Part shown: positions 7,620-52,049 of the stretch, one piece after another | Layout of the letters: each line of letters begins with the position of its first letter | How positions within the stretch are numbered: the stretch's first letter is position 1 | Source of the DNA: an uncultured Acidimicrobiales bacterium | GTDB lineage: Bacteria > Actinomycetota > Acidimicrobiia > Acidimicrobiales > VFJN01 | Direction: 5' to 3' | Assembly (NCBI GenBank): GCA_963735375.1 | Contig: CAVTKS010000005.1 | Location: forward strand, 256,152-320,151 | Length of the DNA stretch: 64,000 bases | Made by a program: the position numbers and the translations under genes | Notes under the pieces: generated by a model | Told to the model about the DNA's origin: nothing | The model's input: the letters and a program-made list of their open reading frames with translations, nothing else | Databases searched by the model: none

Positions 7620-8675
7620 TCATGGCGCGCCGTGGGTCCGGCCTACGGCGGGGAGGCGCCGTCCCGACTCGTTCGGCTGCCTGGTGACGATCTCCTCGGG
7701 ATACCCGAACTCGTCGAGCAAGCTGGCCGTCGCCGCCAGAACAGCGGTTGGGACAGGGACATGAATGTCGTTGTGTCGGTGGAACTCTGCGTCTGACAGC
7801 GAGGCCCGCCGCGCTTGATCGGCCGAACCGCGCGCGTCGACGAAACCCTGCGAGGCCTTTTGGTTGTAGCCCTCACGACTTCGGTAGATGTAGTGGTTGA
7901 GCACGAGGCGAGGCTTGCGATCAGGCGTCACGAACGAGCCATAGACTCGGCGGCCACCTGCCGTTCGTGCGAGACCGCCGCGGCGGTAATAGAGGTTGTG
8001 AGAGTTGCGATAGGCGCGGACCATGGCGGGGCGGGCGAGCACCTTGACGTGGTAGCACGGCTCGGCATCCGCGCGGTCGAACGCCTCGGTGATGAGCCCC
8101 GTCGGTACGACCTCGTGCCCGGAGCTCCCGTAGTAGCGCCAGTTCACGCCGACCGCCGGCCAGCGACCCGCCGATCGCAGGGTCTCGAGAAGGGCCCCGG
8201 GGGAAGCCTCTACGAGGAATTCGTCGGCATCGAAGAACGCCACCCACTCATTGGCGCGACCGAAGCGCGTGAGAAAGTCGATGTTGCTCGACGGGGACGC
8301 GGGAATCGTCGGCCACGGGATGTACGTGACGAGCCCTCGCTCGACGAACGGTGCGATCACACGGTCGATCGCGTCGGTGCTGTTGTTGTCGTAGACGTAG
8401 ACGTGCTCGATGCCGAGGTTCAGGTGATGGGCGAGCCACTCGGGCAGGAAGCGCGCCTCGTCCTTGACGCGGATCATGGCCGCGAGAAAGTGCGTGTCCG
8501 ACGGGCCAGACACGTCGTCGCATTTGATATGGCCCGCGACAGGGCTGGCGTAGTAGGCGTTCTGCACCGTGAACAGGGCAGCCCGAAGCAGTCGATTGCG
8601 CTTGACGTACGCCCGCAGCGACCCCATCGGCCCACCTCTCGTTCGTTTCCCGTACTGTCGCCGCGACCCAGCCAA
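7620..8675 (-). CDS. Glycosyltransferase (GT2/GT92-like, DUF23-type)
   Basis: Contains the [26 protein letters not shown] motif and a DxD-like FFDADEF. An alternative start at 8627 (MGSLRAYV) is possible. Confidence 0.7.
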
Positions 8676-8866
8676 CTCGACGACCGGCGGGAGCGAGGAT
8701 ACTTCAGCTTCCCGGCCACGAGCGTGCCGAGACCTCTAGCCGCGAGCCGCGCGTCGGGGTCGGACTACGTCTGTTCGTAGCCAGCAGATCTCCCGACTTG
8801 GCCGGGGCCGGCGGGAGGGCGGCTAGCCTCGACAGGCCCCGTTCACGCGAGTGCCAGGAGAGCGAC

Positions 8867-10147
8867 GTGCCGGCGACCATCGTGGTCGGAACCCAGTGGG
8901 GCGACGAGGGCAAGGGCAAGTTCACCGACCTCTTCGCCAAGGAGATGCACCTCGTCGTCCGCTACCAGGGCGGGCACAACGCGGGGCACACGCTCGTCGT
9001 CGACGGCGAGACGTTCGCGCTGCAGCTCGTCCCGTCGGGCGTGCTGTACGACCACATCGTCCCCGTCATCGGCAACGGCGTGGTCGTCGACCCCCAGGTC
9101 CTGCTCGACGAGATCGACATGCTCGAGCGCCGCGGCAAGAGCTGTGATCGGTTGAAGGTGTCGTCCAGCGCTCACCTGATCCTGCCGTACCACCAGCTCA
9201 TGGACCGGGTGACCGAGCGCCACCTCGGTAAGAACAAGCTGGGCACCACCAAGCGGGGCATCGGCCCGGCGTATGCCGACAAGGCCGCCAGGGTGGGTCT
9301 GCGCGTGCAGGACATGTACGACGCCAAGATCTTCCGGCAGAAGCTCGAGGTCGTGCTCAAGGACAAGGGCCAGCTGCTCGCCAAGGTGTACAACCAGCTC
9401 GCCCCCACGGTCGACGAGATCTGCGACCTCTACCTGGGAGAGCTAGCCCCCCGGGTCGAGCCGTACGTGGCCGACACGGTCAATCTCGTCCACGAGGCGC
9501 TCGAGATGAACCAGAACGTGCTGTTCGAGGGCGCGCAGGCCACGTTCCTCGACCTCGACCACGGCACCTATCCCTACGTCACGTCGTCCAATCCGGTGGC
9601 GGGCGGGGCGTGCACCGGCGCGGGAGTCGGGCCCCGCTACATCGACAGCGTCGTCGGGATCGCCAAGGCGTACGTCACACGGGTCGGGTCGGGGCCGTTC
9701 GTCACCGAGCTGTTCGACGACGTGGGCGACGCTCTGGTCGACCGTGGCCACGAGTACGGCACCAACACGGGTCGCCGCCGCCGGGCCGGCTGGTTCGACG
9801 CCGTGATGCTGCGGCACGCGGTCCGGCTCAACTCGCTGTCCGAGATCTCGTTGACGAAGCTCGACGTCCTCGACGCCTTCGACACGGTCAAGGTGTGCGT
9901 GGCGTACGAGGCCGACGGGCGCCGCTTCGACAGGTTCCCTGACGACCAGTCGCTGCTGCACAAGGCGACACCGGTGTACGAGGAGCTGCCCGGCTGGTCG
10001 ACCGACCTGTCGGCGGCCACCGAGCCGGGGGCGCTGCCCGACAACGCGGCCGACTACATCGCCTTCCTCGAGGACCAGGTGGGTGTGCCCATCCGGCTCG
10101 TGGGTGTCGGCCCCGGGCGCGACCAGTACGTGCAGCGCAAGCCGTAG
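8867..10147 (+). CDS. purA: Adenylosuccinate synthase
   Basis: Contains [14 protein letters not shown] (P-loop). The GTG at 8867 is preceded by AGGAGAG; the track ORF starts at 8798. Confidence 0.95.
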
Positions 10148-21175: not shown

Positions 21176-22885
21176 GTGACCGGTGCGGATGTGTCCGATG
21201 CAACACGGAGCCGGCAGGGCGGGTTCGCCGCGTGGGGGGTCCGGCACGGCAGACTGTGGCCCGTGATCGACGCGCACCACCCGAGGGCGGCGACAGCCGA
21301 CGAGGACGGCAGCGACGACCACCCGAAGGAAGCGTGCGGCGTCTTCGCCGTGCACGCTCCCGGGCAGTCGGTCGCGCACCTCACCTACCTCGGCCTGTTC
21401 GCCCTGCAGCACCGCGGGCAGGAGGCGGCCGGCATGGCGGTCAGCGACGGCGAGCAGCTCACGGTGGTCAAGGACCAGGGCCTCGTCGCCAGCGTCTTCG
21501 ACGACCGCACCCTCGCCGGCCTCGTCGGACACCTCGCCATCGGCCACTGCCGCTACTCGACCACCGGCTCGTCGACGTGGCGCAACGCCCAGCCCGCCTA
21601 CCGGTCGGTGGGCGAGCACATGTTCGCCCTCGGCCACAACGGCAACCTGGTCAACACCGAAGCGCTCGCCAAGGAGGCGGGCATGCTCGAGGGCACGGTC
21701 ACCAGCGACAGCGATCTGGTCGCCGAACTGATGGCCGCCGAGCTGGCCGTGCACACCCAGCCCGACGATGCGGTGGCCGAGATCCTCGCCGCCGATCCGG
21801 CCCACGATCCCGGGCCCGATCCCGGTGCGGCGGGGCTGAGCGTCGCCGCCGACGCGAGCAGCGTGCCGATCTCGGGCCTCGAGCTCGCCGTGGCCGCGGT
21901 CATCCCCCGGCTCGAGGGCGCGTTCTCGCTCGTGATCATGGACGAGAGCCGGGCCATCGGCGTGCGCGACCCGCAGGGCTTCCGTCCGCTGTGCCTGGGC
22001 CGGCTCGAGAACGGTTGGGTGCTGGCCTCCGAGACACCACGCTCGACATCGTGGGCGCCGACTTCGTCCGCGAGCTCGAGCCCGGCGAGATGGTGATCAT
22101 CGACGACGAGGGCGTGCGGTCGCTGCACCCCTTCGGCACCGATGCCATCGACCCGCACCTGTGCCTGTTCGAGTTCGTCTACTTCGCCCGGCCCGACAGC
22201 CGGCTCTACGGCCGGAGCGTGCACCAGGCCCGCATCCACATGGGCGAGCAGCTGGCCGAGCAGGCGCCGGTCGAGGCCGACATGGTGATGGGTGTGCCCG
22301 AGTCGGGCGTGCCGGCGGCCGAGGGTTTCGCCCGGGCCAGCGGCACCCCGTTCGGCCAGGGCCTCGTCAAGAACCGCTACGTCGGCCGCAGCTTCATCGC
22401 CCCCAACCAGGAGATGCGGCGCGCGCGCGGTGCGCATGAAGCTGAACCCCCTGCGCGAGAACGTGAAGGACAAGCGGCTGGTGGTCGTCGACGATTCGAT
22501 CGTGCGGGGCACCACGCAGCGCCAGCTCGTGCGCATGCTGCGCGAGGCCGGGGCCCGCGAGGTGCACCTGCGCATCACGTCGCCCCCGGTCACGTGGTCG
22601 TGCTTCTACGGCATCGACACGGGTGATCGCAGCGAGCTCATCGCCCGCAACCTCGAGATCGACCACGTCCGCGAGTACCTCAACGCCGACAGCCTGGCGT
22701 ACCTCAGCCTCGACCGGCTGGTCGCCGCCACCGGGGCGCCGGGGGCCGGGTTCTGCGACGCCTGCTTCACCGGCCATTACCCGGTCGAGGTGCCGCTCAC
22801 GCTGCGCAAGCACGTGCTGGAAGACAACGAGATGCCCACCAGCGAAGAGATCGTGCAGCCGGCGCTCGACGGCACCGCCACCTGA
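21176..22885 (+). pseudogene. purF: Amidophosphoribosyltransferase carrying two compensating frame shifts
   Basis: The N-terminal part (EACGVFAV...GWVLASET) is in frame 2 up to about 22035. The middle part (LDIVGADFVRELEPGEMVII...FIAPNQEMR) is in frame 1. The C-terminal part (VRMKLNPLRENVKDKRLVVVDDSIVRGTT...CDACFTGHYP) is back in frame 2 from about 22425. The start could be 21176 or 21263. Confidence 0.85.
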
Positions 22886-38880: not shown

Positions 38881-38956
38881 TGGTGGTCGGGACCGGCGTC
38901 GATCCGGTGACCTTCCGCTTTTCAGGCGGACGCTCTGCCAACTGAGCTACCCGACC
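38881..38956 (-). tRNA. tRNA-Phe (anticodon GAA), CCA encoded
   Basis: The reverse complement GGTCGGGTAGCTCAGTTGGCAGAGCGTCCGCCTGAAAAGCGGAAGGTCACCGGATCGACGCCGGTCCCGACCACCA folds as a cloverleaf with anticodon loop CTGAAAA. Confidence 0.95.
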
Positions 38957-39015
38957 GTGCCTGCCACCCTTGCGAGCGGTGAGGCTGTCCTTCGCCCCCG
39001 GGGAGAGAGCGAAGA

Positions 39016-39093
39016 TGGCGGTCCCGACGGGATTTGAACCCGCGGCCTCCGGCTTGACAGGCCGGCGTGCACTCCAAACTGCACCACGGGACC
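39016..39093 (-). tRNA. tRNA-Asp (anticodon GTC), CCA encoded
   Basis: The reverse complement GGTCCCGTGGTGCAG...CCGGCCTGTCAAGCCGG...GGTTCAAATCCCGTCGGGACCGCCA has anticodon loop CTGTCAA. Confidence 0.95.
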
Positions 39094-39108
39094 GTGATCT
39101 TGGCGACG

Positions 39109-39181
39109 CACCCCCAACGGGATTCGAACCCGTGTTACCGCCTTGAAAGGGCGGCGTCCTAGGCCACTGGACGATGGGGGC
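39109..39181 (-). tRNA. tRNA-Glu (anticodon TTC), CCA not encoded
   Basis: The reverse complement GCCCCCATCGTCCAGTGGCCTAGGACGCCGCCCTTTCAAGGCGGTAACACGGGTTCGAATCCCGTTGGGGGTG has anticodon loop CTTTCAA. Confidence 0.95.
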
Positions 39182-39692: not shown

Positions 39693-40193
39693 TCAGCCGC
39701 GGGCGTCGGGGTTGGGCGGCGGCAGGTCGGTGCTGAGCGTGTCGACCACCTGTGACAGCAGCCAGCCCAGGTACTCGTACACCGCGTAGGCCGGGGCCAG
39801 CGGGTCGGTGTCGTCGAGTGGCGGTAGCTCCTCGTCGACGTCGAGCCGCGTGCCGAGGACGAGCCGCAACGAGTTGAGGGTGTGCATCCAGGCGGTCATG
39901 CCGGCGTCGTCGAGCTCGCTGCCGTCGAGCGTGGCCTCGACCGTGTCGAGGGCGGCGAGGCGATGCTCCAGCAGCTCGTCGCGCGTGAGCACCTGGTAGC
40001 CGGCGTCGCGCTCGGCATCGTCGGGGTAGGCGGGCGGGAACAGGCGCCGCACCGACGGGTCGTCGGTCGACGCCACCAGCTGCTCGCGCAGTTGGCCCAC
40101 CAGGTCGGCGACCAGCATCCGCTCGTTGGGGCGCAGCTTCACCTGGTAGCGGCTCTTGCCGCGGCGCCTGACCCTGTCTCGGTCGAAGACCAT
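39693..40193 (-). CDS. DUF2017-domain protein (ClpS-associated in Actinobacteria)
   Basis: The sequence pattern (KLRPNERMLVADLVGQLREQL...RLFPPAYPDDAERDAGYQVLTRDELLEHRL) and its position directly downstream of clpS, with a 1-nt overlap. Confidence 0.75.
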   Translation of the reverse strand: MVFDRDRVRRRGKSRYQVKLRPNERMLVADLVGQLREQLVASTDDPSVRRLFPPAYPDDAERDAGYQVLTRDELLEHRLAALDTVEATLDGSELDDAGMTAWMHTLNSLRLVLGTRLDVDEELPPLDDTDPLAPAYAVYEYLGWLLSQVVDTLSTDLPPPNPDARG

Positions 40194-40513
40194 CAGTCCT
40201 GCTGCATCGTGGCCCAGAGGCCGTGCTCGTGGAGGCGGAAGACGTCGAGCTCGGCCTTCTCACGGGTGCCGTTCGACACGACGGCGCGCCCGTCGTAGTG
40301 CACCTGGAGCATGAGCTTCTCGGCCACCTCGAGTGGGTACCCGAACAGCTTCTGCAGCACGAAGGTGACGTACGACATCAGGTTGATGGGGTCGTTCCAC
40401 ACGATGACCACCCACGGGCGGTCGGGATCGACGTCGGTGTCACCGACGGGCTGGTCGGTCTCGACGGGCGCCGTCAGCGGCGCGGTTGGACCAGCGGTCA
40501 CCACGAGGTTCAT
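40193..40513 (-). CDS. clpS: ATP-dependent Clp protease adaptor ClpS
   Basis: Contains [24 protein letters not shown] and [16 protein letters not shown]. Confidence 0.92.
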
Positions 40514-40526: not shown

Positions 40527-41528
40527 CTATCGGGTCGTCGCCACCGGGGTGGCCGCGCCCTCGTCGGTCACCGCGATGACCTCTGGCTGCGGGGTGGCGT
40601 CGACCGCTGCCTGGCGGGCGATCGCCTGGGTCGCCTCGGTGGTGCCGAGCGACAGCCACAGGCGCAGCACGGCGATCCACACGAGGGTCGCACCGAGGAC
40701 GTGGAACGCCACGAGCAGCGCCGGCACCCCGACGAAGTACTGCCAGTAGCCGATCGCCGCCTGGGCCAGGAGCACCACCAGCAGCTCGTGGCTGCGGCGG
40801 ACGACGGACGGTGCCGCGTCGCCACGGTGGGCCATGCGCACGACGACGACCGTCAGGGCGAGGAACACGATCATCGACAGGCCGTGGACCCGGGCCACCG
40901 TGCCCACCTCCAGAGCGAGGCGGTCGGCCCGGTCGTCGCCGGCGTGGGGGCCGCTGCCGGTCACCAGGGTGCCGGTGATCAGCACCAGACCCGCTGCCAC
41001 GAGGAGAAGCTTGCACGCCGTGACGAACCCGTCGGTGGCCGCCCGCCGGCGCGGCTGGTCGGGCGCGGCGTCGCCCTCGGCGCCGGCGCGCTCGTAGAGC
41101 AGGAGGGCGTTCCAGATGGCGCCCAGCGCCAGCACGAAGTGGCCGATCACCGAGACGGGCGACAGGTGGAGCCAGACGACGAGCGCTCCCACCAGGCCGT
41201 TGGACAGCACCCAGGCGAACACACCCAGGGCCAGGCGGAACAGGTCGGAGCGCCGGGGGCGCCGCAGGTGGGCGCCCACCACCGCGGCGATGGCGAGGAG
41301 GCCGACGGCGGCGTTGGCCAACCGGTTGGCGAACTCGATCATCGCGTGGGTGTCCGACGCCGACCGGGGGGTGAAGCTGTCGGGCTCGCACGACGGCCAG
41401 GTGGAACAGCCGAGGCCCGAACCGGTCAGCCGCACGCCGGCGCCGGCGACCGTGATGAGCACCAGCGACACGAGGGTGGCCAGCGCGATCGAGCGGTAGG
41501 TGGCGGGAGAGAGGCGGGGGAGCCGCAC
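40527..41528 (-). CDS. ctaA: Heme A synthase (COX15/CtaA)
   Basis: Contains [12 protein letters not shown], eight helices and conserved His positions ([16 protein letters not shown]). Confidence 0.9.
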
Positions 41529-41647
41529 GACGCTCAGGGTAGGAGCCGCGCCCCCGGCGAGCCGAATACGGGTCGCCGTCGGCCGGCCGGGAGCCGGTGC
41601 GCTGCGTTGGCTCCCCTCGGGAGGCCAGACCTAGGCTGCGCCGCGTT

Positions 41648-42553
<906 letters not shown>

Positions 42554-42635
42554 TGGCCTGCCTGCTCATTCGTAGCCTCAAGACGCATGTGACTAGATTC
42601 CCGAGCACAGCCAGTCTCCTGACCAGGGTGCGTTC

Positions 42636-44286
42636 ATGACCGTGACCGAAGCTCCCCGCGACGCCGCCGTCGAGGCCGCCGCTGCGCCGTCCCTGTCGGC
42701 TCCGCCGACCGGGTTGGCCGCCGTGGTCGGCTCGGGCGACCCGCGCACCATCGGCAAACTGTTCGTCGGCACGTCGCTGCTGTTCCTGATCGCCGCCGGG
42801 GTCGCCGGTGCACTGGTCGGGATCGAGCAGTACGACGTATCCGGCAGCGAGATCTTCGGCGCCGACACCGCGCTCCGGGTCTTCACCCTCCACTCCACCG
42901 CGGCGCTGTTCCTCGGGGTGGTGCCCCTGCTGATCGGGCTCGCCACCGCCATCGTGCCGTTGCAGGTGGGAGCGTCCACGGTCGCCTTCCCCCGGGCCAG
43001 CGCCGCCGCCTACTGGGTGTGGCTGGCGTCGAGCGGCCTCGTCCTCGCCTCCTACGCCATCGATGGCGGCCCGTTCGGCACCGAGCTCGACGCGGTGGGC
43101 CTGTACGTGGCCGGCCTCATCGCCGTCGTCATCGCCCTGGCGGTGGCCACCCTGTCGGTCGTGACCACGGTGCTCACGCTGCGGGCGCCGGGTATGAGCC
43201 TGCGCCGCACGCCGCTGTTCTCGTGGTCGATCCTGGCGGCGGGCACGGTGTGGCTGCTGACGCTGCCCGTCCTCGCCGGCGTGCTGCTGCTCACCTACCT
43301 CGACCTGCGCTACGGCCAGCAGTTCCTCGGGGGCAGCGGCGGCGTGTGGGATCGCATCGCCTGGCTGTTCTGGCAGCCCTCGCTCTACCTCGTGGCCGTG
43401 CCGGCGCTCGGCATCATCGCCGACATCGTGCCGGTCTTCGGCCGGCGCCGGCACCAGCGCCACGGTGCCGCCATGTTCCTCATCGGCCTCGCCGCCGCGC
43501 TGGGCTTCGGTGCGTGGGCGCAGATCGGCGCCAGCGTCGACGGCAGCGAGTCCCCGACGCCGTGGTTGTTCGAGGGCCCGTGGATCGTCGTCGGGTTCCT
43601 GGCCATCGTGCCGGTGCTCGGCCTGCTGGGTCTGTGGAGCGCCACCCTCGCCAAGGGCAAGGTCAAGGTCGGCACGCCGCTGATCCTCGCCCAGCTCTCC
43701 GGGCTGCTCGTGCTCCTCGGCGTCGCCGCCGGTGGCGCCACGGTCATCGAGGACCTCGATCTCGACAACACCACGTGGATGACCGCCCAGGCCGACCTCG
43801 TGCTGGTGGGCGCTGCGCTCGGCGGGCTCGCCGGTGTCGGCGTTCTGGGCGCCCAAGCTCTACGGCAAGCTGCTGCCCGACGCGGTCACCCGGTTGGGCG
43901 GCACCATCGTGTTCCTCGGTGCGCTCGTCGCCGCCGTGCCGCAGGCCATCGCCGGGCTCAGCTACGGCCAGGCCCGCCTCGTCGCGGGCGGCGCCGGCAC
44001 GGTCGATGCCGGTGACCTCGAGACGGTCGAGACGCTCAACCTGGTGTCGGGCATCGGCCTCGCCGTCGTCGTGCTGGGTGGCGTCGTCGTCGCCCTGGCG
44101 CTGCTGAAGCCCCGCGCCGGCGACGGCCCCGGCGACGACCCGTGGGACGGCCACACCCTCGAGTGGGCCACAACCTCACCACCGGCGGTCGGCCATTTCG
44201 CCTCGCTGCCGGAGATCACGTCCGAGGCCCCGGTCTACGACGCCCGCCACGCCGCCGCGGCCGAGAACACGGAGGCATCCGCCTGA
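42636..44286 (+). pseudogene. Heme-copper oxidase subunit I paralog lacking most metal ligands; reading frame broken near 43833
   Basis: Colinear with CtaD in this window. However FGHPEVY becomes FWQPSLY, WAHHMF becomes WAQIGA and VAHFHYV becomes TAQADLV. Only the first His (FTLHST) is kept. The C-terminal part (SAFWAPKLYGK...DPWDGHTLEWATTSPP) continues in the +1 frame from 43834. Confidence 0.75.
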
Positions 44287-44897
44287 TGGCCACCGCCACC
44301 ACCGACCTGGAGATCTTCTCCGCGGCGCCGCCCGCGCCGCCGGCCCGCCCCCGCGTGTTGCTCGTCGGCACCGCGTTGGCTGCCGGCAGTGCCGCGATGG
44401 TGATCCTCTCGCTCATCGGCTTCTACGCCAAGCTGCGCTCCGACGTGATCGCCAGCGGCGAGATCTGGCTGCCGGATGAGGGCAACCTGCAGCTCACGCC
44501 CGGCAGCATGGGCATGGTCACCCTGCTCCTGTCACTGCTGACCGTCGCCTGGGTGGTGCAGGCCCTGCGCAACGAGGATCGCGGCCACGCCCTCATGGCG
44601 TTCGGTATCACGCTGCTCCTCGGCGCCGCCTACATCAACGGCGTCGCCTACGGCTGGCAGCAGTTCGGGCTCGGCGTCACCAGCTCGACGCAGGCGCTGC
44701 TGATCTACACGATCACCGCCCTGCACGTCGCCATGGTCGGCGTCGGCATGCTCTATCTGGCCGTCATGGCGTTCCGCGCCGTGGGCGGCCAGTACACCGG
44801 CCGCGCCGCCGAAGGCGTCAGCGCCGCCGCCCTGTACTGGTTCGTGACCGTGGCCGTGTACGCCGCGGTCTGGTACACGATCACCATCATCAAGTGA
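44286..44897 (+). CDS. Heme-copper oxidase subunit III-like membrane protein
   Basis: A five-helix protein with a subunit-III-like C-terminus (AALYWFVTVAVYAAVWYTI). TGATG overlap with the preceding gene. Confidence 0.65.
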   Translation: MATATTDLEIFSAAPPAPPARPRVLLVGTALAAGSAAMVILSLIGFYAKLRSDVIASGEIWLPDEGNLQLTPGSMGMVTLLLSLLTVAWVVQALRNEDRGHALMAFGITLLLGAAYINGVAYGWQQFGLGVTSSTQALLIYTITALHVAMVGVGMLYLAVMAFRAVGGQYTGRAAEGVSAAALYWFVTVAVYAAVWYTITIIK

Positions 44898-44901
44898 GGC
44901 C

Positions 44902-45720
44902 ATGAGGATGATCACCACCGGTTCCAAGTGGTTCTTCGGCCTCGGGTTCGTCACGCTCGTCCTGGCGGCCGCCTACGGCTGGACGACTGGCGGCAACGGC
45001 CTCGGCCCGTTGACGGTCGGCTACAAGGGGGCCGTCGGCGATCACTTCGGCTACGGCGTCCTGGTGTCGGCTGCCGTCGTCAGCCTCGTCCTCGGCCTGG
45101 TGGCCTCGGCCTCCCGTGACGCCGAGGCCGTCTCGGTCGCCCAGGTGGCCGGCACCGACACCGTCCCGCCGGTCACGCCGGCCGGCGCCAGCTACTGGCC
45201 GCCGATCGCCGCGTTCGGCGCGGCGCTGGTCGTCGTCGGCCTGGTGGCCGAGCCCCTGATGTTCGTCTTCGGCCTGATCGTGCTCGGCATCGTGCTGGTC
45301 GAGTGGGCAGCGCAGGCGTGGGCCGACCGCGCCACGGGCGACGCCGAGACCAACCGGCGCATCCGCAACCGCCTGATGAACCCGATCGAGTACCCGGCGG
45401 CCGGCGTGCTGGCGCTCGCCGTGCTGGCGGTGGCGTTCTCCCGTGTGTTCCTGGCGCTGTCGCCCGACGTCGCGGTGTGGATCGCGCTGGTCGCTTCAGT
45501 TGTCATCGTCGGCGCGGGCTTCCTGATCGCCTCGCGCCCCAAGATCAGCTCGAACGTGGTCGTGGGCCTGCTGGTCGTCGGTGCCCTCGTGGTCATCGGC
45601 ATCGGCGTCGGTGGCGCTGTCGCCGGCACCCGCGAGTTCCACGAGCACGAGGAAGAGCCCGGTGGCGACCACGGCGCCTTTCCGCCGGCCGCCCCGGTGA
45701 TCGTCGAGGTGGCCCGGTGA
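44902..45720 (+). CDS. Membrane protein with a CtaF (actinobacterial subunit IV)-like helix pair plus extra helices and a His/Glu-rich tail
   Basis: ASYWPPIAAFGAALVVVGLV...LIVLGIVLVEWA resembles the SYWP helix pair at the CtaD C-terminus in this window. Lies 4 nt after the previous gene. Confidence 0.55.
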   Translation: MRMITTGSKWFFGLGFVTLVLAAAYGWTTGGNGLGPLTVGYKGAVGDHFGYGVLVSAAVVSLVLGLVASASRDAEAVSVAQVAGTDTVPPVTPAGASYWPPIAAFGAALVVVGLVAEPLMFVFGLIVLGIVLVEWAAQAWADRATGDAETNRRIRNRLMNPIEYPAAGVLALAVLAVAFSRVFLALSPDVAVWIALVASVVIVGAGFLIASRPKISSNVVVGLLVVGALVVIGIGVGGAVAGTREFHEHEEEPGGDHGAFPPAAPVIVEVAR

Positions 45721-45764
45721 TCCGTCGTAGCTCGCGTCCTGCACGAGGACCTCAAGGAGAAGGC

Positions 45765-46970
45765 ATGTCCAACGGCCAGCAGCCGGGCCGCGAGTCCGGA
45801 GGCCCGCGCCGCCGTCGCTTCGCGCCCCTGGCGCTCGTCCTGCCGCTGGTGCTGTTCCTCGGCGCCTGTGCGTCGGACGCCCCGCAGTCCACGCTCGAGC
45901 CCAAGGGGCCCATCGCCCGCAGCATCGACAGCCTGTGGGACGGGGTGTTCCTCATCGCCGTGGTGGTGTTCATCCTGGTCGAGTTCGGCACCCTGGCGCT
46001 GGTCATCAGGTTCCGTCGCCGCCGCAACGACAGCGACGACGACCTGCCCACCCAGACGCACGGCAACACCAAGCTCGAGATCGCCTGGACGATCCTGCCG
46101 GCGGTCATGCTCGCCGTGGTCGGGTTCTTCACGCTGCGCACGCTGTTCGACATCAACGAGCGCAACGACGACGACCTGACCGTCCAGGTCACCGGCCAGC
46201 AGTGGTGGTGGGAGTTCGCCTACGACACCAACGGCGACGGCGAGTTCGACGACGAGCCGGTGCTCACGGCCAATGACCTCGTCATCCCGGCGGGTGTGGA
46301 CGTCAACCTCGACATCCAGTCCAACGACGTCATCCATTCGTTCTGGATCCCCGCCCTCAACGGCAAGAAGGACGCCGTGCCGGGCCGCACGCACCCGCTC
46401 CGCATCAACGCCGACGAACCCGGCACCTACGTCGGGCAGTGCACCGAGTTCTGTGGTCTGTCCCACGCCTACATGCGCCAGCGGGTCGTCGCCCTCGAGC
46501 CCGACGAGTTCGAGGCGTGGCTCGAGGAGCAGCAGGACGACGCGGAGATGCCCACCGAGGAGCGTGCCGCCGGCGGCGCCGAGCTGTTCACCACCCAGTG
46601 CTCGGGGTGCCACCTGGCCCGGGGCATCAACGACTCGGAGTTCGAGGAGCAGGGCGACGGCACCGAGCTGATCGTGTCCGAGAACGCGCCCGACCTGACG
46701 CACTTCGCCAGCCGCGGCACCTTCGCCGGGGCCATCTTCGACCTGTGGGTCGACCAGGACGGCGACGAGATCATCGAGGCGGACGAGATCGGCGTCGAGC
46801 TGAACCGCGGGGCCCTCGAGGCCTGGCTCCGCAACCCGCCGGCCGAGAAGCCCATGGACGCCCCACACGTGCCCGAGCCGGGCGGCGACAAGGTGCGGGG
46901 CATGCCCAACTTCAACCTGCAGGAGGACCAGATCGACCAGCTGGTCGACTTCCTCGCGGGCCTGGACTGA
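45765..46970 (+). CDS. ctaC: Cytochrome c oxidase subunit II with a fused C-terminal cytochrome c domain (caa3 type)
   Basis: Lipobox LGAC, CuA site HSFWIPALNGKKD...CTEFCGLSHAYM and heme c motif CSGCH. AAGGAGA precedes the ATG at 45765. Confidence 0.93.
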   Translation: MSNGQQPGRESGGPRRRRFAPLALVLPLVLFLGACASDAPQSTLEPKGPIARSIDSLWDGVFLIAVVVFILVEFGTLALVIRFRRRRNDSDDDLPTQTHGNTKLEIAWTILPAVMLAVVGFFTLRTLFDINERNDDDLTVQVTGQQWWWEFAYDTNGDGEFDDEPVLTANDLVIPAGVDVNLDIQSNDVIHSFWIPALNGKKDAVPGRTHPLRINADEPGTYVGQCTEFCGLSHAYMRQRVVALEPDEFEAWLEEQQDDAEMPTEERAAGGAELFTTQCSGCHLARGINDSEFEEQGDGTELIVSENAPDLTHFASRGTFAGAIFDLWVDQDGDEIIEADEIGVELNRGALEAWLRNPPAEKPMDAPHVPEPGGDKVRGMPNFNLQEDQIDQLVDFLAGLD

Positions 46971-46985
46971 GTAGTAGGAATCCAC

Positions 46986-49109
46986 ATGGCGATCGTCGAA
47001 CGCCCGACTGCACCCCTCGAGCTGACCACAGGGGCAACCACCGTCAACCGGCCGCTGGGCGGCTTCTCGCGCCCGACCGCGACCACCGGCTGGAAGAGCT
47101 GGCTCACCAGCGTCGACCACAAGCGCATCGGCATCATGTACGCCGCCGCCGCGCTGTTCTTCTTCACCCTCGGCGGGTTCGAGGCCGTGCTCATCCGGCT
47201 GCAGCTGGCGGCACCCGGGCAGAAGCTCTACTCGGCCGACCTGTACAACCAGCTGTTCACCATGCACGGCGTGACGATGATCTTCCTGGTCGTCATCCCG
47301 CTCGGCGCGGCGTTCATGAACTACCTGATGCCGCTGCAGATCGGCGCCCGTGACGTCGCGTTCCCGCGGCTCAACGCGTTCAGCTTCTGGTGCTTCCTCG
47401 GCGGCGGCCTCATGCTGAACACGTCGTGGTTCCTGGGCGGCGGTGCCGACGGCGGCTGGTTCGCGTATGCCCCCAACACGGGCGTGACGTTCTCACCCAG
47501 CCACGGCATGGACTTCTACGCCCTTGGCCTGCAGATCACCGGCATCGCCTCGCTCGTCGGTGCCATCAACCTGGTGGTCACGGTGCTCAACATGCGGGCG
47601 CCCGGCATGACGATGATGAAGATGCCGGTCTTCACCTGGATGGGCCTCGTCACCCAGCTGCTGCTGGTGTTCGCCCTGCCGGTCCTCTCGATCGCGTTGT
47701 TCCTGCTCACCTTCGACCGGCTGTTCGACGCCAACTTCTTCAACGTGTCGCAGGGCGCCGACCCGTTGTTGTGGGAGCACCTGTTCTGGATCTTCGGCCA
47801 CCCGGAGGTCTACATCCTGATCCTGCCCGCCTTCGGCATCGTGTCCGAGATCATCCCGGTGTTCTCCCGCAAGCCCATCTTCGGTTACCCGTTCATGGTG
47901 TTCTCGGGCATCGCCATCGGCTTCATGGGCTGGGGCGTGTGGGCCCACCACATGTTCGCCTCCGGCATGGGGCCGCTGTCGGTGGCCGCGTTCTCGATGT
48001 CGACCATGTTCATCGCCGTGCCCACCGGCGTGAAGATCCTGAACTGGCTGGCGACCATGTGGGGCGGCAAGTTGCGCTTCACCACGCCGATGCTGTTCGC
48101 CATCGGCCTGGTCACGATGTTCACCATCGGCGGCCTGTCGGGCGTCACCCACGCGGTGGCCCCGTCCGACACGCAGCAGACCGACACGTACTACATCGTC
48201 GCCCACTTCCACTACGTGATCTTCGGTGGTGCTCTGCTGGGCTTCCTGGGCGGCTTCTACTTCTGGTGGCCCAAGGTGTTCGGGTGGATGCTCGACGAGA
48301 AGTTGGGCAAATGGCACTTCTGGACGATCCTGATCGGGTTCAACCTGACGTTCGGGCCCATGCACATCCTGGGCCTGCAGGGCATGCCCAGGCGCATGCA
48401 CACCTACGTCGCCGGCTACGGGTTCGACTTCTGGAACATGGCGTCGACCGTGGGCGCGCTCGTCATCGCCGTGTCGATGCTGATCTTCGCCTGGAACATC
48501 CTGAGGAGCTGGCGGGCCCACAAGGCCAACCCGGTCGACCCAGGGCCCGACCCGTGGGACGCACGCAGCCTCGAGTGGATGGTCCCGTCGCCGGTGCCCG
48601 CCCACAACTTCGACGAGACGCCCACCGTGTCGCACCTCGACGAGTTCTGGCACCGCAAGTACCAGGAAGACGAGACCGGCAAGGTCGTGCGGGTGGCCAC
48701 CGGCGCCGAGGTCGCCCAGAAGGGTGACGCCACCGACGTCCACCTGCCGTCGCCCTCCTACTGGCCGCTCGTCATGGCCGCCGGGCTGCCCATCATCGGC
48801 TACGGCCTGATCTTCAACCTGGGCTTCGCCGCCCTGGGCGGGCTGATCGTGGTGATCGGCGGCTTCGGGTGGGGCTACGAGCCCGCGGACGACCCGGAGG
48901 CCCACCACGGCCCCAACGGGCACGATGGTCACGACGACGGCCACGACGGCGCCGAGGCCGAGCCCGACGAGGTCGACGGCGGCGACGAGACCGCGGGCGA
49001 CGCGACCGCCGGCGCCGGCGAGCCGCAGCCCGCCGGTGTGTCGGCGTCCACCGCCTCCACTCCGTCCACCGCCTCCGAGTCCGACGAGAAGGCTCCCTCC
49101 GATGACTGA
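46986..49109 (+). CDS. ctaD: Cytochrome c oxidase subunit I with a C-terminal CtaF-like helix pair and a His/Asp-rich tail
   Basis: All canonical ligands are present (FTMHGV, FGHPEVY, WAHHMF, AHFHYV). It has an extra roughly 130 aa (PSPSYWPLVMAAGLPIIGYGLIF..., HHGPNGHDGHDDGHDG). Confidence 0.95.
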   Translation: MAIVERPTAPLELTTGATTVNRPLGGFSRPTATTGWKSWLTSVDHKRIGIMYAAAALFFFTLGGFEAVLIRLQLAAPGQKLYSADLYNQLFTMHGVTMIFLVVIPLGAAFMNYLMPLQIGARDVAFPRLNAFSFWCFLGGGLMLNTSWFLGGGADGGWFAYAPNTGVTFSPSHGMDFYALGLQITGIASLVGAINLVVTVLNMRAPGMTMMKMPVFTWMGLVTQLLLVFALPVLSIALFLLTFDRLFDANFFNVSQGADPLLWEHLFWIFGHPEVYILILPAFGIVSEIIPVFSRKPIFGYPFMVFSGIAIGFMGWGVWAHHMFASGMGPLSVAAFSMSTMFIAVPTGVKILNWLATMWGGKLRFTTPMLFAIGLVTMFTIGGLSGVTHAVAPSDTQQTDTYYIVAHFHYVIFGGALLGFLGGFYFWWPKVFGWMLDEKLGKWHFWTILIGFNLTFGPMHILGLQGMPRRMHTYVAGYGFDFWNMASTVGALVIAVSMLIFAWNILRSWRAHKANPVDPGPDPWDARSLEWMVPSPVPAHNFDETPTVSHLDEFWHRKYQEDETGKVVRVATGAEVAQKGDATDVHLPSPSYWPLVMAAGLPIIGYGLIFNLGFAALGGLIVVIGGFGWGYEPADDPEAHHGPNGHDGHDDGHDGAEAEPDEVDGGDETAGDATAGAGEPQPAGVSASTASTPSTASESDEKAPSDD

Positions 49110-49731
49110 CACCGCGTTCGCCACGCACGATCCCGATCCGGCGCTCCATCCCAAGGGCGTGCCCACCCACGACACGAGCACCGGCGTCTCCAACGAGAAG
49201 CTGGCCATGTGGGTGTTCCTCGGGTCGGACTGCCTGCTCTTCGGTGGGCTCATCTCGACGTACCTGCTGCTGCGGCACCGCTCCGTTGCCGGCCCGGGGC
49301 CCGAGGACGTGTTCGACATCCCGTTCACGTCGGTGTCGAGCTTCGTGCTGCTGTTCAGCTCGCTGACCATGGCGCTCGCCGTCGGTGCGATCCACCGGGG
49401 CGACGAGCGCCGCTGCCGCACCTTCCTGCTCACCACCTCGCTGCTGGGCGGGGTGTTCATCGCCGGGCAGGTCTACGAGTTCACGTCCTTCGTCAAGGAG
49501 GGGCTGGGCTACACGACCAACATCTTCGGGTCGGCCTTCTACACGCTCACCGGCTTCCACGGCGTGCACGTCAGCGTGGGCATCATCCTCCTGCTGACGT
49601 TGTTCGTGATGTCGCTACGGGGCAACCTGGGGGCAGAGCGAGCCGAGACCGTCGAGATCTTCGGCCTCTACTGGCACTTCGTCGACATCGTGTGGATCCT
49701 GATCTTCACGATCGTCTACCTGATCCCGTGA
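49102..49731 (+). CDS. ctaE: Cytochrome c oxidase subunit III
   Basis: Contains FYTLTGFHGVHVSVG and YWHFVDIVW. The ATG at 49102 overlaps the ctaD stop by 8 nt. Confidence 0.92.
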   Translation: MTDTAFATHDPDPALHPKGVPTHDTSTGVSNEKLAMWVFLGSDCLLFGGLISTYLLLRHRSVAGPGPEDVFDIPFTSVSSFVLLFSSLTMALAVGAIHRGDERRCRTFLLTTSLLGGVFIAGQVYEFTSFVKEGLGYTTNIFGSAFYTLTGFHGVHVSVGIILLLTLFVMSLRGNLGAERAETVEIFGLYWHFVDIVWILIFTIVYLIP

Positions 49732-49747
49732 GTGTGGGGAGCGAACG

Positions 49748-50113
49748 ATGAGCACCGCCACCGAACCCGAATACGCCGGCGAGGCGCCGCAGGCCGGGGC
49801 CGACCACGAGGCCCACCAGCACACGCACCCCAGCGACCGCAGCTACGTCATCGTCGCCCTCATCCTCGCGGCCATCACGGCGCTCGAGGTCGGCACCTAT
49901 TTCATCGAGGACGCCAGCACGACGCTGCTGGTCGCCTCGCTGTTCCCGATGATGATCGCCAAGTTCGCCATCGTGTGCGGCTGGTTCATGCACCTCCGCT
50001 ACGACAACCCGCTGTTCAAGCGCGTGTTCGTCGGGGGCCTCGTGCTGGCCGTGTTCGTCTACACGATCGTGCTCACCACGATGGAGTTCTGGGACTCGGG
50101 CTACGGGACGTGA
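49748..50113 (+). CDS. ctaF: Cytochrome c oxidase subunit IV (Bacillus-type COX4_pro family)
   Basis: A three-helix small protein (YVIVALILAAITALEV...FAIVCGWFMHLRYD) directly after ctaE. Confidence 0.8.
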   Translation: MSTATEPEYAGEAPQAGADHEAHQHTHPSDRSYVIVALILAAITALEVGTYFIEDASTTLLVASLFPMMIAKFAIVCGWFMHLRYDNPLFKRVFVGGLVLAVFVYTIVLTTMEFWDSGYGT

Positions 50114-50119
50114 TCTGAG

Positions 50120-51055
50120 ATGAGCCTGCTCGCCGCCGGAACCGACTTCTGGCGCTGGCAGCCGCACCCGGAGGTCTGGGTGCTGGTGGGGGGTGTCGCC
50201 GTCCTGGCCGTCTACGCGATCCGCGTGGTGGGCCCCAAGGTGGTGCCCGCAGGCCAGGCTGTCGTGTCACGACAGCAGCTCGCCTGGTTCGGGCTGGGCC
50301 TCGTGCTGCTGTGGCTGGCATCCGACTGGCCGATGCACGACATCGGCGAGGAGTACCTCTTCTCGGTGCACATGACACAGCACATGGTGCTCACCTACCT
50401 GGTCCCGCCCGTGATGCTGTTGGCCACCCCCCAGTGGCTGGCCCGGCTGGTGCTCGGTCGGGGGCGGGTGAAGCAGGCCTTCTACTTCCTGGCCAGGCCC
50501 GTGCCGGCGGCCCTGCTGTTCAACGGCTTCCTGCTGTTCACGCACGCGCCCGGCGTCGTGAACATGTCGGTCGGGAACCCGCTCGTGCACTACCTCGTGC
50601 ACACGGCGCTGGTGTTCACGTCGTTCCTGCTGTGGATGCCCGTGGTGGGCCCGCTGCCCGAGCTGCGCATCTCCTACCCGGCGCAGATGCTGTACCTGTT
50701 CGTCACCTCGATCATCCCGACCGTGCCGGCCGGGTGGCTCACCTTCGCCGAGGGGTCGATCTACTCCGCCTACGACGTGCCCGACCGCCTGTGGGGCCTG
50801 ACCATCACCGACGACCAGCAGATGGCCGGCGTCATCATGAAGCTCGTCGGCGGCGGGTTCCTGTGGATCGTCATCACCACACGGTTCTTCCAGTGGGCGG
50901 CCAAGTTCAGCGACAGCGACAAGGCGATCGACCAGGCCGGGCCGGCGACCGACCTGACCTGGGCCGACGTCGAGCGCGAGTTCGACAAGCACCCGCCGGC
51001 ACAGGAGCCCACCGCCGATGTCCGGCCGGGCACAGATCCGGCCGACCCGGGCTGA
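50120..51055 (+). CDS. ctaG: Cytochrome c oxidase assembly factor CtaG (caa3-type)
   Basis: Contains WPMHDIGEEYLFSVHMTQHMVLTYLVPP and MAGVIMKL. It completes a ctaBCDEFG-like order. Confidence 0.85.
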   Translation: MSLLAAGTDFWRWQPHPEVWVLVGGVAVLAVYAIRVVGPKVVPAGQAVVSRQQLAWFGLGLVLLWLASDWPMHDIGEEYLFSVHMTQHMVLTYLVPPVMLLATPQWLARLVLGRGRVKQAFYFLARPVPAALLFNGFLLFTHAPGVVNMSVGNPLVHYLVHTALVFTSFLLWMPVVGPLPELRISYPAQMLYLFVTSIIPTVPAGWLTFAEGSIYSAYDVPDRLWGLTITDDQQMAGVIMKLVGGGFLWIVITTRFFQWAAKFSDSDKAIDQAGPATDLTWADVEREFDKHPPAQEPTADVRPGTDPADPG

Positions 51056-51107
51056 CCCGCGCTGACACCGCAGCCCGGCGCACCCCCCGGTCTCGCGGTC
51101 GCGCCGG

Positions 51108-52049
51108 CTACCAGGCGTAGGTGACGCCCGTGAGCTCCTCGGACAGGGCCCAAAGTCGCGCGGCCGCCTCGTCGTCGCGCGCCGCGGACGACATGCCGAC
51201 CGTCTTGGGGCCGCCACGCATCTCGAACGGGCCGTCCGGGCCGACGTAGTCGCCGGAGGCCACGTCGTCCATGGTGGCCGCGTAGAGCTGGGGCAGCGCC
51301 CCGGCGGCGTCGGACTGGGCGACCAGGCCGTTGCCGATCGCCATGATCGCTCCCGTCGCCCGCGACAGCAGCCACCCACCCGACTGATCGGCGCTCGCAC
51401 CCTGGAGGTGGGTGGAGGCGTAGCCGGGGTGGGCCGCGGCCGACGTCAGGTCGACGCCGGCGTCGCGGGCGCGGCGGTCGAGCTCGCGCATGAACAACAG
51501 GTTGGCGAGCTTCGACCGACCGTACGCGGCCCACTTGCGGTAGCGGGTGCGCTCGTAGTTGGGGTCGTCCCACTCGTTGCGGCCCTGGCGGTGCATGTTC
51601 GACGACGTCGTGACGACGCGCGGAGAGCCCGCACGGCGCAACGCGGGCAGCAGCAGACCGGTGAGCGCGAAGTGGCCGAGGTGGTTGGTGCCGAACTGCA
51701 TCTCGAACCCGTCGGCCGTGCGGGTGAGCGGTGGCGCCATCACACCGGCGTTGTTCATCAGCACGTCGAGCCGGTCGACCGCCGCATCGACCTCGGCGGC
51801 GGCCTTGCGCACCGACTCGAGGTCGGCGAGGTCGAGCGGGACGACCACCGGATCGGGTCCGGTGGCCACCGCGGCAACCTGCGCCCGCGCCACCTCGGCG
51901 CGTTCGGCGCTGCGGCACGCCATCACCACCGTCGCGCCGCGCCGGGCCAGCGCCTCGGCCGACCGCAGGCCGAGCCCACTGTTGGCGCCCGTCACGAGGA
52001 CGGTGCGGCCGGTCTGGTCGGGGATGTCGGACGATGCCCAGCGAGCCAT
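51108..52049 (-). CDS. Short-chain dehydrogenase/reductase
   Basis: Contains VLVTGANSGLG, NNAG and the catalytic YGRSK. Confidence 0.9.
   Translation of the reverse strand: MARWASSDIPDQTGRTVLVTGANSGLGLRSAEALARRGATVVMACRSAERAEVARAQVAAVATGPDPVVVPLDLADLESVRKAAAEVDAAVDRLDVLMNNAGVMAPPLTRTADGFEMQFGTNHLGHFALTGLLLPALRRAGSPRVVTTSSNMHRQGRNEWDDPNYERTRYRKWAAYGRSKLANLLFMRELDRRARDAGVDLTSAAAHPGYASTHLQGASADQSGGWLLSRATGAIMAIGNGLVAQSDAAGALPQLYAATMDDVASGDYVGPDGPFEMRGGPKTVGMSSAARDDEAAARLWALSEELTGVTYAW

Follow-up and report, generated by a model that had tools for sequence, protein, structure and literature searches.

Three tightly packed genes that read in the same direction, at positions 42636–45720 of the window (the whole stretch of DNA analyzed, 64,000 nucleotides), encode a paralogous copy of the membrane core of the oxidase. 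From this module, the genes of which we call I*, III*, and IV*, the canonical ligands for heme a, heme a3, and CuB have been lost, together with both proton channels. Purifying selection maintains the module, which is a constant component of the cta cluster in all the related loci that were recovered. Its likeliest role, which is inferred, is that of a noncatalytic partner to the caa3 oxidase, in its structure or its assembly.

Gene layout, reading frame, and conservation of the module

The module lies between ctaB and an ordinary cytochrome c oxidase operon. Upstream are ctaA, encoding heme A synthase on the minus strand (40527–41528; PF02628, 1.4e-21) and found in the same position in related loci, and ctaB, encoding heme O synthase (41597–42553; PF01040, 1.3e-66), which, like all the features that follow, is on the plus strand. 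The stop codon TGA of I* (44284–44286) and the ATG of III* at 44286 have one A in common. III* ends at 44897, followed by a 4-nt gap before the ATG of IV* at 44902 (44908 in the public annotation, P0277), and IV* ends at 45720, 44 nt before the start of ctaC at 45765. These coordinates agree with the TGATG overlap and the two spacings given in a preliminary description of this DNA. The genuine operon consists of ctaC (45765–46970), for subunit II with a fused cytochrome c (PF00116, PF02790, and PF00034); ctaD (46986–49109), for subunit I (PF00115, 3.3e-158; TIGR02891, 696.9 bits, above the cut-off); ctaE (49102–49731), for subunit III (PF00510, 1.2e-18); ctaF (49748–50113), for prokaryotic subunit IV (PF03626, 1.7e-10); and ctaG (50120–51055), for the caa3 assembly factor (PF09678, 2.4e-43). 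The genuine ctaD product has six of six His, with the site pattern HDHEYHHKHH, a two-helix C-terminal extension, and a His/Asp-rich tail. The module has no COX2-like gene, the sole one being the genuine ctaC downstream; the module was rightly said to have no subunit II or CuA partner. A scan of 41300–51400 gave no promoters or terminators above shuffled expectation.

In the window, I* reads in two frames. The first 400 codons (42636–43835, frame 0) match positions 2–359 of PF00115 (3.4e-43), begin with an N-terminus, MTVTEAP, that is kept in relatives, and have the high third-position GC of a coding frame. The C-terminal 149 codons (43837–44286, frame +1) match positions 365–434 of PF00115 (8.7e-5) and 388–503 of TIGR02891 (1.2e-13) and, with no gap, are colinear with CtaD. 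The window reads GGTGTCGGCG, where eight relatives read GGCGT-GGCG, so that there is one extra C at 43838; dropping it restores AGVAFWAPK, which is the family consensus. As far as can be judged from sequence comparison, this frameshift is probably an assembly error, because the relatives do not have the base, purF in the same window is also split, across three frames by two further frameshifts (near 22050 and 22400), and the codon changes after the shift in the lineage of the window are mostly synonymous (10 synonymous and 2 nonsynonymous). The codons past the shift keep a coding-type third-position GC. A programmed frameshift was considered and rejected; every relative reads straight through.

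The frameshift could also be read as a mark of a decaying duplicate or pseudogene, either here or family-wide. However, I* is intact, in the same order ctaA(−) ctaB I* III* IV* ctaC ctaD ctaE ctaF ctaG, in 84 of 87 related loci, and the three broken copies are all in long-read MAGs in which genuine cta genes are broken as well. The values of dN/dS are well below 1, at 0.14–0.29 for I*, 0.15–0.34 for III*, and 0.18–0.34 for IV*, to be compared with 0.16–0.33 for ctaC and 0.14–0.24 for ctaD. The two further frameshifts in purF and the character of the codons after the shift in I* also argue against decay. On the strength of dN/dS, the intact genes, and the post-shift substitution pattern, we reject the pseudogene reading, which is largely refuted for the family and to which we give almost no credence. 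The preliminary description had named homologues riddled with disruptions as evidence of decay, and the relatives are not of this kind.

The gene order is invariant in 91 loci, each departure being attributable to the end of a contig or to artefactual merging of ORFs, so the survey of synteny that had been called for finds ctaB-I*-III*-IV*-ctaC recurring across related loci. The overlap of the I* stop with the III* start occurs in all of these, and in three loci (L002, L003, and L091) the IV* stop overlaps the ctaC start as well. Named carriers among the recovered loci are Acidimicrobiales or unclassified Actinomycetota. No copy of the module was seen outside the cta cluster in related loci. 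When 1.84 billion proteins were searched by profile for subunit I paralogues, a large radiation of ligand-poor forms came to light, with no ligand His at all in 73 of 129 full-length representatives; the organism-named members are all Acidimicrobiia or unclassified Actinomycetota.

Fold and lost ligands of the subunit I paralogue

I* meets the family match to PF00115 (cut-off 34.8 bits), with 148.5 bits for residues 39–398 and 22 bits for the C-terminal piece, and it falls far under the equivalog cut-offs of TIGR02891, NF050116, QoxB, and CyoB. An AlphaFold2 model of P0001, a protein 92% identical to that of the window, has 12 long helices (pLDDT 79, pTM 0.82). In Foldseek, this model gives TM scores of 0.76–0.79 to CtaD chains, as expected for the 12-helix subunit I fold. 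The TM score is 0.78 to actinobacterial aa3 CtaD (6adq_F of M. smegmatis and 7q21_D of C. glutamicum) and to subunit I of Thermus caa3 (2yev_A), A-family proteins with which I* has 22–28% identity.

The ligand positions were tabulated from a MAFFT alignment with the CtaD of the window and from an independent HMMER alignment with M. smegmatis CtaD (6adq_F). One of the six canonical ligand His is left in the I* of the window. This is the low-spin heme His of helix II, in FTLHST, where CtaD has FTMHGV. At the first CuB site, FGHPEVY of CtaD is FWQPSLY in I*, with His replaced by Gln and Glu by Ser, and with Trp in place of the Gly that precedes the His. Both His of the HH pair are gone (WAHHMF in CtaD and WAQIGA in I*), and neither His of VAHFHYV remains in TAQADLV. 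The two alignments agree on these losses, which had been proposed earlier; histidines at the canonical positions in an alignment to PF00115 and CtaD would have refuted the proposal, and none was found at the five lost positions. The proton channels were scored at Asp132, Glu286, and Lys362 (R. sphaeroides numbering). The D-channel Asp is Thr in 119 of 119 close relatives, the channel Glu is replaced by Thr, Ser, or Ala in the I* family, and the K-channel Lys is gone, with no Lys in the helix VIII segment of I*. One of the two heme-propionate arginines is also lost, and the III–IV periplasmic loop has a 13-residue deletion. Since the ligands of CuB and heme a3 are absent, the module is unable to act as an oxidase or to respire, and the alignments bear out the earlier conclusion to this effect.

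The helix II His is not a trait of the family. Among 119 close relatives, this position is His in 85, Gln in 33, and Ser in 1, and in the Microthrixaceae loci it is Arg, leaving none of the six ligand His. Thus, the statement that the low-spin heme His is kept is correct for the I* of the window and does not extend to its family. Because the residue is not conserved, its retention cannot be taken as a sign of continued heme binding. One may nevertheless ask whether the module is still redox active with unconventional ligands, for example with one heme held by the remaining His and another residue, given that most of the close relatives have this His and that low-spin heme with His/Met or His/Lys ligands occurs in other families of the superfamily (PMC11214002). 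We consider this very unlikely. The partner position, 421, is free to vary in close relatives (T, L, V, I, E, D, N, Y, W, and F), the His itself is replaced as described, one propionate Arg is missing, and IV* has here no cupredoxin domain that could deliver electrons.

Other positions of the former active site are nearly fixed in the close family. Gln occupies the former H333 and H419 in 119 of 119 relatives and the former H284 in 118 of 119, and Tyr288 is present in all 119. A His-Tyr cross-linked cofactor is impossible in I*, because the partner His has been replaced by Gln. A purely structural role leaves unexplained why Gln is invariant at these three former ligand sites of the close family.

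What is conserved in I* is the skeleton of subunit I. At least 93% conservation is found in 77 columns of an alignment of 85 sequences, and 55 of these are in common with genuine CtaD. The other 22, which are specific to the ghost proteins, consist largely of small hydrophobic or polar residues, with a single charged one, R272, in a cytoplasmic loop; the column analysis of the 85 sequences showed no new conserved charged residue within the membrane. The identity of the I* consensus to genuine CtaD is 47% in cytoplasmic loops, 28% in helices, and 21% in periplasmic loops. At the level of sequence, conservation is thus seen in the Gly, Pro, and Trp residues of helix packing and above all in the loops of the cytoplasmic face, with motifs common to I* and CtaD at the N-terminus, in the II–III and IV–V loops, and in the C-terminal DPW..LEW tail (DDPW..LEWAT..PPP..NF..LP.I.SE.P, as in A-family subunit I). 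The part that has diverged most is the periplasmic face, which is the side on which subunit II docks in real oxidases.

These features bear on a further possibility, that the module has been repurposed and that the emptied cavity, with its three Gln, Tyr, and Trp in the close family, binds or conducts a small ligand or cation, either alone or in regulating the oxidase. The near-invariance of the three Gln and Tyr288, the substitution of Trp for Gly before the first CuB position, and the strongly conserved extramembrane motifs of IV* described below, which suggest a specific binding surface, would fit such a function. However, the former ligand positions vary across the wider I* family (with Q, P, T, A, and V among the residues found), those of the D and K channels are lost with no new conserved charge within the membrane, and the module has not been seen off the cta cluster. 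We regard this function as improbable.

Subunits III* and IV* and the cupredoxin-bearing sister modules

III* (44286–44897, 203 aa) meets the subunit III match to PF00510 with 34.2 bits (cut-off 23.8) and is below the NCBIfam equivalog cut-offs, its match to NF050119 (aa3_CtaE_Actin) being 3.1e-12. It is 28% identical to the CtaE of the window over 173 residues (E 1e-12), and its description as subunit III-like stands. IV* (44902–45720, 270–272 aa) is a seven-helix membrane protein with no Pfam or NCBIfam family. Its structure is predicted only with low confidence (pLDDT 64, pTM 0.42). It has more than 120 homologue clusters, of which the named ones are nearly all called 'hypothetical protein'. 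The SYWP helix pair of IV* (residues 78–134) resembles the C-terminal extension of CtaD, with an hhalign probability of 90% (E 1.5e-6) and E 0.003 in pairwise BLASTP. This extension in turn weakly resembles PF12270, the CtaF family (20.8 bits). By contrast, a Pfam scan of 37 members of the IV* family at E up to 1 gave scattered chance hits only and no PF12270, and IV* has about seven helices and conserved loops that are missing from CtaF. The reported similarity of the helix pair to CtaD is upheld, and it is only this one pair, of the seven helices of IV*, that is common to IV* and the subunit IV-like extension of CtaD. The extramembrane motifs YGWTTGG..GYKGxVGDHxGY and WADRATGDPxxNRxIRNRLMxPIExP are very strongly conserved in IV*.

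Deeper relatives of the module, L088 and L090, have the order ctaB-I'-III'-IV'-ctaC-ctaD-ctaE, as in the window. The whole membrane domain of IV* is homologous to that of the L088 protein (E 3e-13), and both have the motifs SRV.LA and G.RE. The sister modules differ from that of the window in that I' retains both low-spin heme His and IV' has a type-1 copper domain fused to its outward-facing C-terminus. The copper ligands His, Cys, His, and Met are kept in 117 of 117 full-length cupredoxin-bearing IV' proteins. The end of IV* in the window, APVIVEVAR, corresponds by inference to the place where the sister copper domain starts, with a loose resemblance to EPVEMVAQ of L088. In public databases, IV' is named 'cupredoxin domain-containing protein' or 'plastocyanin', and its hosts are Acidimicrobiia or Actinomycetota MAGs. 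The sister modules appear to be undescribed as well.

Since a blue-copper domain is present in the deeper relatives of IV*, its lineage did formerly have an electron-entry domain. In an NJ tree, the ligand-poor forms make one clade with heme-retaining forms at its base. The module of the window is consistent with the cofactor-free end of a stepwise loss, the polarity of which rests on this unsupported tree. The other genuine COX1 sequences nearest to I* in the tree are P0242 and P0269. Since I* scores alike against the CtaD of its own operon (about 171 bits) and that of M. smegmatis (about 174 bits), the lineage from which it came is unresolved.

Function and significance

We suggest that the module is a permanent, cofactor-free structural subcomplex packed against the genuine CtaC/D/E/F oxidase, a proposal that may well be right but that we would stop short of calling probable, and in which the association itself is inferred. 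The starting point would have been a redox-active accessory complex of the caa3 oxidase, in which electrons passed from external blue copper to a low-spin heme within the membrane. In the lineage of the window, every cofactor would then have been lost, and the module would have persisted as a noncatalytic partner, made in amounts matching CtaC/D/E/F from one transcript. The basis for physical association is operon linkage and the overlapping stop and start codons only, and these would be just as compatible with a transient assembly factor. Direct evidence is lacking that the I*, III*, and IV* proteins are produced, form a complex, or contact the genuine oxidase.

A transient role would have I*/III*/IV* mimic the core and hold CtaC, newly made CtaD and CtaE, or heme O or A until maturation and then dissociate. 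The module lies right after ctaB, near ctaA, and before the structural genes, ctaG closes the cluster, and the cytoplasmic motifs that it has in common with CtaD could dock shared biogenesis factors. There is also the precedent of NifEN, a paralogue of the catalytic subunits NifDK that acts as a scaffold and is likewise a duplicated catalytic core with altered ligands beside the genes for the active enzyme. Unlike NifEN, which still binds metal clusters, the module has no recognizable cofactor site, and so no metal or heme ligands by which a cofactor could be retained. The known assembly factors of oxidases are small, unrelated proteins (PMC9145763). Scanning I*, III*, and IV* with Pfam and NCBIfam gave COX1 and COX3 only, with no homology to Surf1, CtaG, Sco, PCuAC, or CtaM. 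Furthermore, three large membrane proteins, one-to-one with the structural genes, would be a costly chaperone, and the relatives with heme and copper sites resemble electron carriers, not chaperones. We therefore think a transient platform unlikely, if still to be taken seriously, and prefer the permanent structural subcomplex.

In a 2024 survey, the active-site His are completely conserved in all families of the superfamily except gNOR (PMC11214002). In gNOR, one His is replaced by Asp, both hemes are kept, and the protein is a predicted NO reductase, whereas the I* module has lost essentially its whole cofactor set. The literature searched contained no description of a ligand-less subunit I module and no transcript, proteome, or structure data for it, in keeping with the earlier remark that no described family is known to have this ligand pattern. 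Public annotation names the I* proteins 'cbb3-type cytochrome c oxidase subunit I' or 'heme/copper-type oxidase subunit 1'. Because of this, counts of terminal oxidases from Acidimicrobiia genomes are inflated, including those of Ca. Microthrix in wastewater and of abundant soil and aquatic lineages.

Invariance of the six His of subunit I is taken to define the heme-copper superfamily. The proteins described here, a large clade that purifying selection maintains, have discarded these His, yet they have kept the fold and the place in the operon, which raises the question of what an oxidase core does without cofactors. Direct testing is possible, because there is a cultured carrier of the module, Salinilacustrithrix flava EGI L10123 (L061). 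Tentatively, and with more doubt than conviction, we propose that these proteins are an undescribed branch of the superfamily in Acidimicrobiia, in which a complex for input from blue copper to a single heme on the caa3 oxidase became, in most Acidimicrobiales, a cofactor-free 'dummy' core that is an obligate structural half of the active enzyme. If this is true, it would be the first pseudoenzyme form of a respiratory oxidase and a supercomplex that retains a fossil partner. The proteins with two heme ligand sets, with one heme and blue copper, with one His, and with none make a natural series in which the transition from redox enzyme to structural protein may be studied.

Layout of the cta cluster and the reading frame of I*

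The three close-packed genes I*, III* and IV* (42636-45720, +), which encode paralogues of oxidase subunits I and III and a protein of seven predicted helices, lie between ctaB (41597-42553, +; PF01040) and ctaC (45765-46970, +; COX2 plus cytochrome c). The divergent ctaA (40527-41528, -) is upstream of ctaB. After IV*, ctaC and the genes for genuine subunit I, ctaD (46986-49109, +), genuine subunit III, ctaE (49102-49731, +), COX4_pro, ctaF (49748-50113, +), and Caa3_CtaG, ctaG (50120-51055, +), form a complete caa3-type oxidase cluster. The spacings given in the preliminary description are exact: the I* stop codon and the III* ATG have one base in common at 44286, 4 bases precede the IV* ATG at 44902, and IV* ends 44 bases short of ctaC. 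ClpS and a DUF2017 protein (39693-40513, -) directly adjoin ctaA, and this pair is at the same place in nearly all related loci, including a distant one (L090). A cluster of tRNA-Phe(GAA), tRNA-Asp(GTC) and tRNA-Glu(TTC) (38881-39181, -) is found just upstream of the cta neighbourhood. In a published classification, the CtaA of Acidimicrobiaceae is a subtype with a His60-to-Asn change in heme A synthase (PMC8239418).

The reading frame of I* is 0 until about 43835 and +1 starting at 43837, and third-position GC gives a coding signal in both halves. Alignment with eight relatives shows one additional base in the window (GGTGT[C]GGCG vs GGCGT-GGCG), and deleting C 43838 gives back AGVAFWAPK, the family consensus. 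Every relative reads through this site without a break. The purF gene for amidophosphoribosyltransferase (21176-22885, +) matches consecutive parts of TIGR01134 (1-196, 198-322 and 312-432) in three frames, so there are two further indels in the window, which suggests that its assembly is error-prone and probably long-read. Indels are also present in the genuine ctaC and ctaD of other long-read MAGs in the I* family, and the window-lineage codons after the shift show 10 synonymous and 2 nonsynonymous changes, with the sister lineage much alike. On these grounds, we treat the frameshift as a presumed assembly error, without read-level confirmation.

An oxidase-core paralogue without cofactor ligands and proton channels

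PF00115 recognizes I* in two pieces (3.4e-43 for the first), with a score far under all equivalog cut-offs for CtaD, QoxB and CyoB. III* scores over the PF00510 cut-off and has 28% identity to the CtaE of the window. The structural model of a 92%-identical homologue of I* (P0001) has 12 long helices (pLDDT 79, pTM 0.82) and can be superposed on the CtaD of actinobacterial aa3 and on subunit I of Thermus caa3 with a TM of ~0.78.

The ligand sites were read from two independent alignments, by MAFFT to the CtaD of the window and by HMMER to M. smegmatis CtaD, which agree. The first CuB His is replaced by Gln, the HH pair by Gln-Ile, and the helix X His pair by Gln and Asp, which bears out the losses noted from the sequence alone. 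Furthermore, Thr replaces the D-channel Asp and Ser replaces the Glu of HPEVY, and there is no K-channel Lys. The helix II His, previously described as a retained low-spin heme ligand, is indeed present in the window, but it is not conserved across the family. Among 119 close relatives (64-92% identity), this residue is His in 85, Gln in 33 and Ser in 1, and the Microthrixaceae loci have no His at any of the six canonical sites (low-spin heme, heme a3 and CuB). Thus, the lone His of the window is not a conserved heme ligand. In the same 119 sequences, Gln is invariant at 333 and 419 and present at 284 in 118, the Asp132 position is always Thr, and Tyr288 is always retained.

We built a profile from 40 I* sequences and ran it against 1.84 billion representatives of 50%-identity clusters. 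This gave 515 matches under 1e-30, with genuine subunit I appearing only from about 258 bits down. For 129 full-length proteins among the best 150 of the 515 matches, the number of His at the six sites is zero in 73, one in 25, two in 21, three in 3, four in 2 and six in 5. The members with a named organism come from Acidimicrobiales, Ilumatobacteraceae or an "Actinomycetota bacterium". They are labeled "cbb3-type cytochrome c oxidase subunit I" at NCBI and "heme/copper-type oxidase subunit 1" at JGI. The "cbb3-type" name, given to the I* of the window and to P0015, P0025, P0028 and other homologues, is wrong in both type and function, and counting such mislabeled proteins would overstate the number of oxidases in metabolic reconstructions.

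IV* has 272 residues and belongs to no Pfam or NCBIfam family; it has more than 120 homologue clusters, the named ones nearly all "hypothetical protein". From hydrophobicity and the positive-inside rule, we read the alignment as a seven-helix topology in which the N-terminus is inside and the C-terminus outside. Two extramembrane motifs are strongly conserved: YGWTTGG..GP..GYKGxVGDHxGY, predicted to lie outside, and WADRATGDPxxNRxIRNRLMxPIExP, predicted to lie inside. The SYWP helix pair that was reported to be common to IV* and the CtaD C-terminus holds at the profile level: residues 78-134 (..AQVAGT..VP..P..SYWP and two helices) match the genuine CtaD extension with a probability of 90% and E 1.5e-6. 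This extension is itself weakly like actinobacterial subunit IV (PF12270, 20.8 bits, under the cut-off). In the genuine CtaD C-terminus (48740-49106, +), the two-helix extension is followed by a His/Asp-rich acidic tail (HHGPNGHDGHDDGHDG...), which may bind metal, and then by a long low-complexity Ala/Ser/Thr/Glu stretch.

Conservation of the module within the cta cluster

Related loci were scanned with one genome per species, and the best 80 of 144 confirmed loci were retained; with look-ups, the I* gene was available from 87 loci. It is a single intact ORF in 84, and the 3 split genes all come from MAGs with genuine cta genes that are likewise split. The order ctaA(-) ctaB I* III* IV* ctaC ctaD ctaE ctaF ctaG is invariant, all departures being contig ends or ORF-merging artefacts of the analysis script, so the synteny with ctaB and ctaC noted earlier extends to the relatives. 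All but one of the loci with a named lineage belong to Acidimicrobiales, among them Microthrixaceae (Ca. Microthrix parvicella RN1), Iamiaceae and Salinilacustrithrix flava, which is cultured; the exception is a MAG labeled Jiangellaceae (L072). The loci without a named lineage are labeled merely Actinomycetota or "bacterium". In two MAGs, JBKJIL ant_bin.159 (L043 and L045) and JBKHVG B_bin_1_strict (L048 and L052), the cluster from ctaA to ctaC is found twice on separate contigs, from either whole-unit duplication or a strain mixture in the bin.

The dN/dS values (NG86, window vs four relatives) are 0.14-0.29 for I*, 0.15-0.34 for III* and 0.18-0.34 for IV*, and 0.16-0.33, 0.14-0.24 and 0.11-0.12 for ctaC, ctaD and ctaE. 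Since NG86 is crude at so high a GC content, these are meaningful only as a comparison between genes. A decaying duplicate, for which relatives full of disruptions would have spoken, is rejected for the family by the intact genes, the split genuine cta genes in the other three loci, and dN/dS comparable to that of genuine cta genes. The module is thus under purifying selection and fixed within the cta cluster of every related locus recovered, the named ones being Acidimicrobiales or unclassified Actinomycetota.

In 85 I* sequences with identity down to 40%, 77 columns are ≥93% conserved, and 55 of these are identical to genuine CtaD. The shared columns are mostly helix-packing Gly, Pro and Trp, the II-III loop (PLQ.GA...AFPR), the IV-V loop (R.PG....P.F.W) and the C-terminal tail (DPW...LEW). 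The 22 columns specific to I* are chiefly small hydrophobic or polar residues; R272, the only charged one, is in a cytoplasmic loop outside the membrane. Identity to the genuine CtaD consensus is highest in cytoplasmic loops (47%), lower in helices (28%) and lowest in periplasmic loops (21%), with few columns for the loops, and the periplasmic III-IV loop has a 13-residue deletion. Hence, the face that in genuine oxidases meets subunit II is the most eroded, while the structural skeleton and cytoplasmic face are conserved.

We favor the view that the module serves the oxidase as a permanent structural partner, since the skeleton is kept, the order is fixed, several relatives have overlapping stop and start codons all the way from I* to ctaC, and there is no new active-site signature; there is no evidence of expression or physical association. 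The main rival is a transient assembly platform. An independent ligand- or ion-binding role ranks third.

Distant relatives with heme and copper sites

Distant members were found on three contigs. In an Actinomycetota MAG (L088), the genes run ctaB, I', III', one for a 324-aa protein, ctaC, ctaD, ctaE, COX4_pro and CtaG, where I' and III' are the counterparts of I* and III*. This I' retains both low-spin heme His (HRYTWSELMH). The 324-aa protein (5549-6523) is homologous to IV* across the entire membrane domain (E 3e-13) and has a C-terminal cupredoxin domain (PF13473, 1.3e-10; PF00127 over the cut-off) with a type-1 copper pattern, His...Cys-x2-His-x2-Met. L090 shares this arrangement, with a cupredoxin-bearing IV' at 8363-9403; a thioredoxin/Redoxin-family gene (TlpA/Sco-like, 9400-9984) lies between it and ctaC. 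In L091, I' retains the ligand His for both hemes and none for CuB, and IV' is without the cupredoxin. The cupredoxin-bearing IV' family has 170 matches, with names including Acidimicrobiales and Acidimicrobiaceae, and the four copper ligands are invariant in all 117 full-length members. Next to an I' that retains both low-spin heme His, this form suggests an as yet undescribed membrane complex of blue copper and a single heme within cta operons.

The end of the window IV* (...APVIVEVAR) loosely resembles EPVEMVAQ, the L088 stretch just before the cupredoxin, so IV* may end roughly where that domain begins, judging from motif likeness without an alignment. In a rough NJ tree, which has no support values, the ligand-poor paralogues all fall into a single clade, with the heme-ligand- and copper-retaining forms basal and the group of the window most derived.

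In the literature searched, we found no description of the ligand-less module, in keeping with the preliminary description; most subscription journals were not covered, so this absence is not proof. Neither a review of oxidase assembly proteins (PMC9145763) nor a study of COX operon evolution (PMC8239418) mentions such a protein. We rate I* as homologous to the heme-copper superfamily and as failing the cofactor features that define it. The module is related to ones that still have a low-spin heme site and a blue-copper domain, and we infer that the ancestor would have been an accessory electron-transfer complex alongside the caa3 oxidase. The version in the window would then be an end-point of cofactor loss, kept for a nonredox role.
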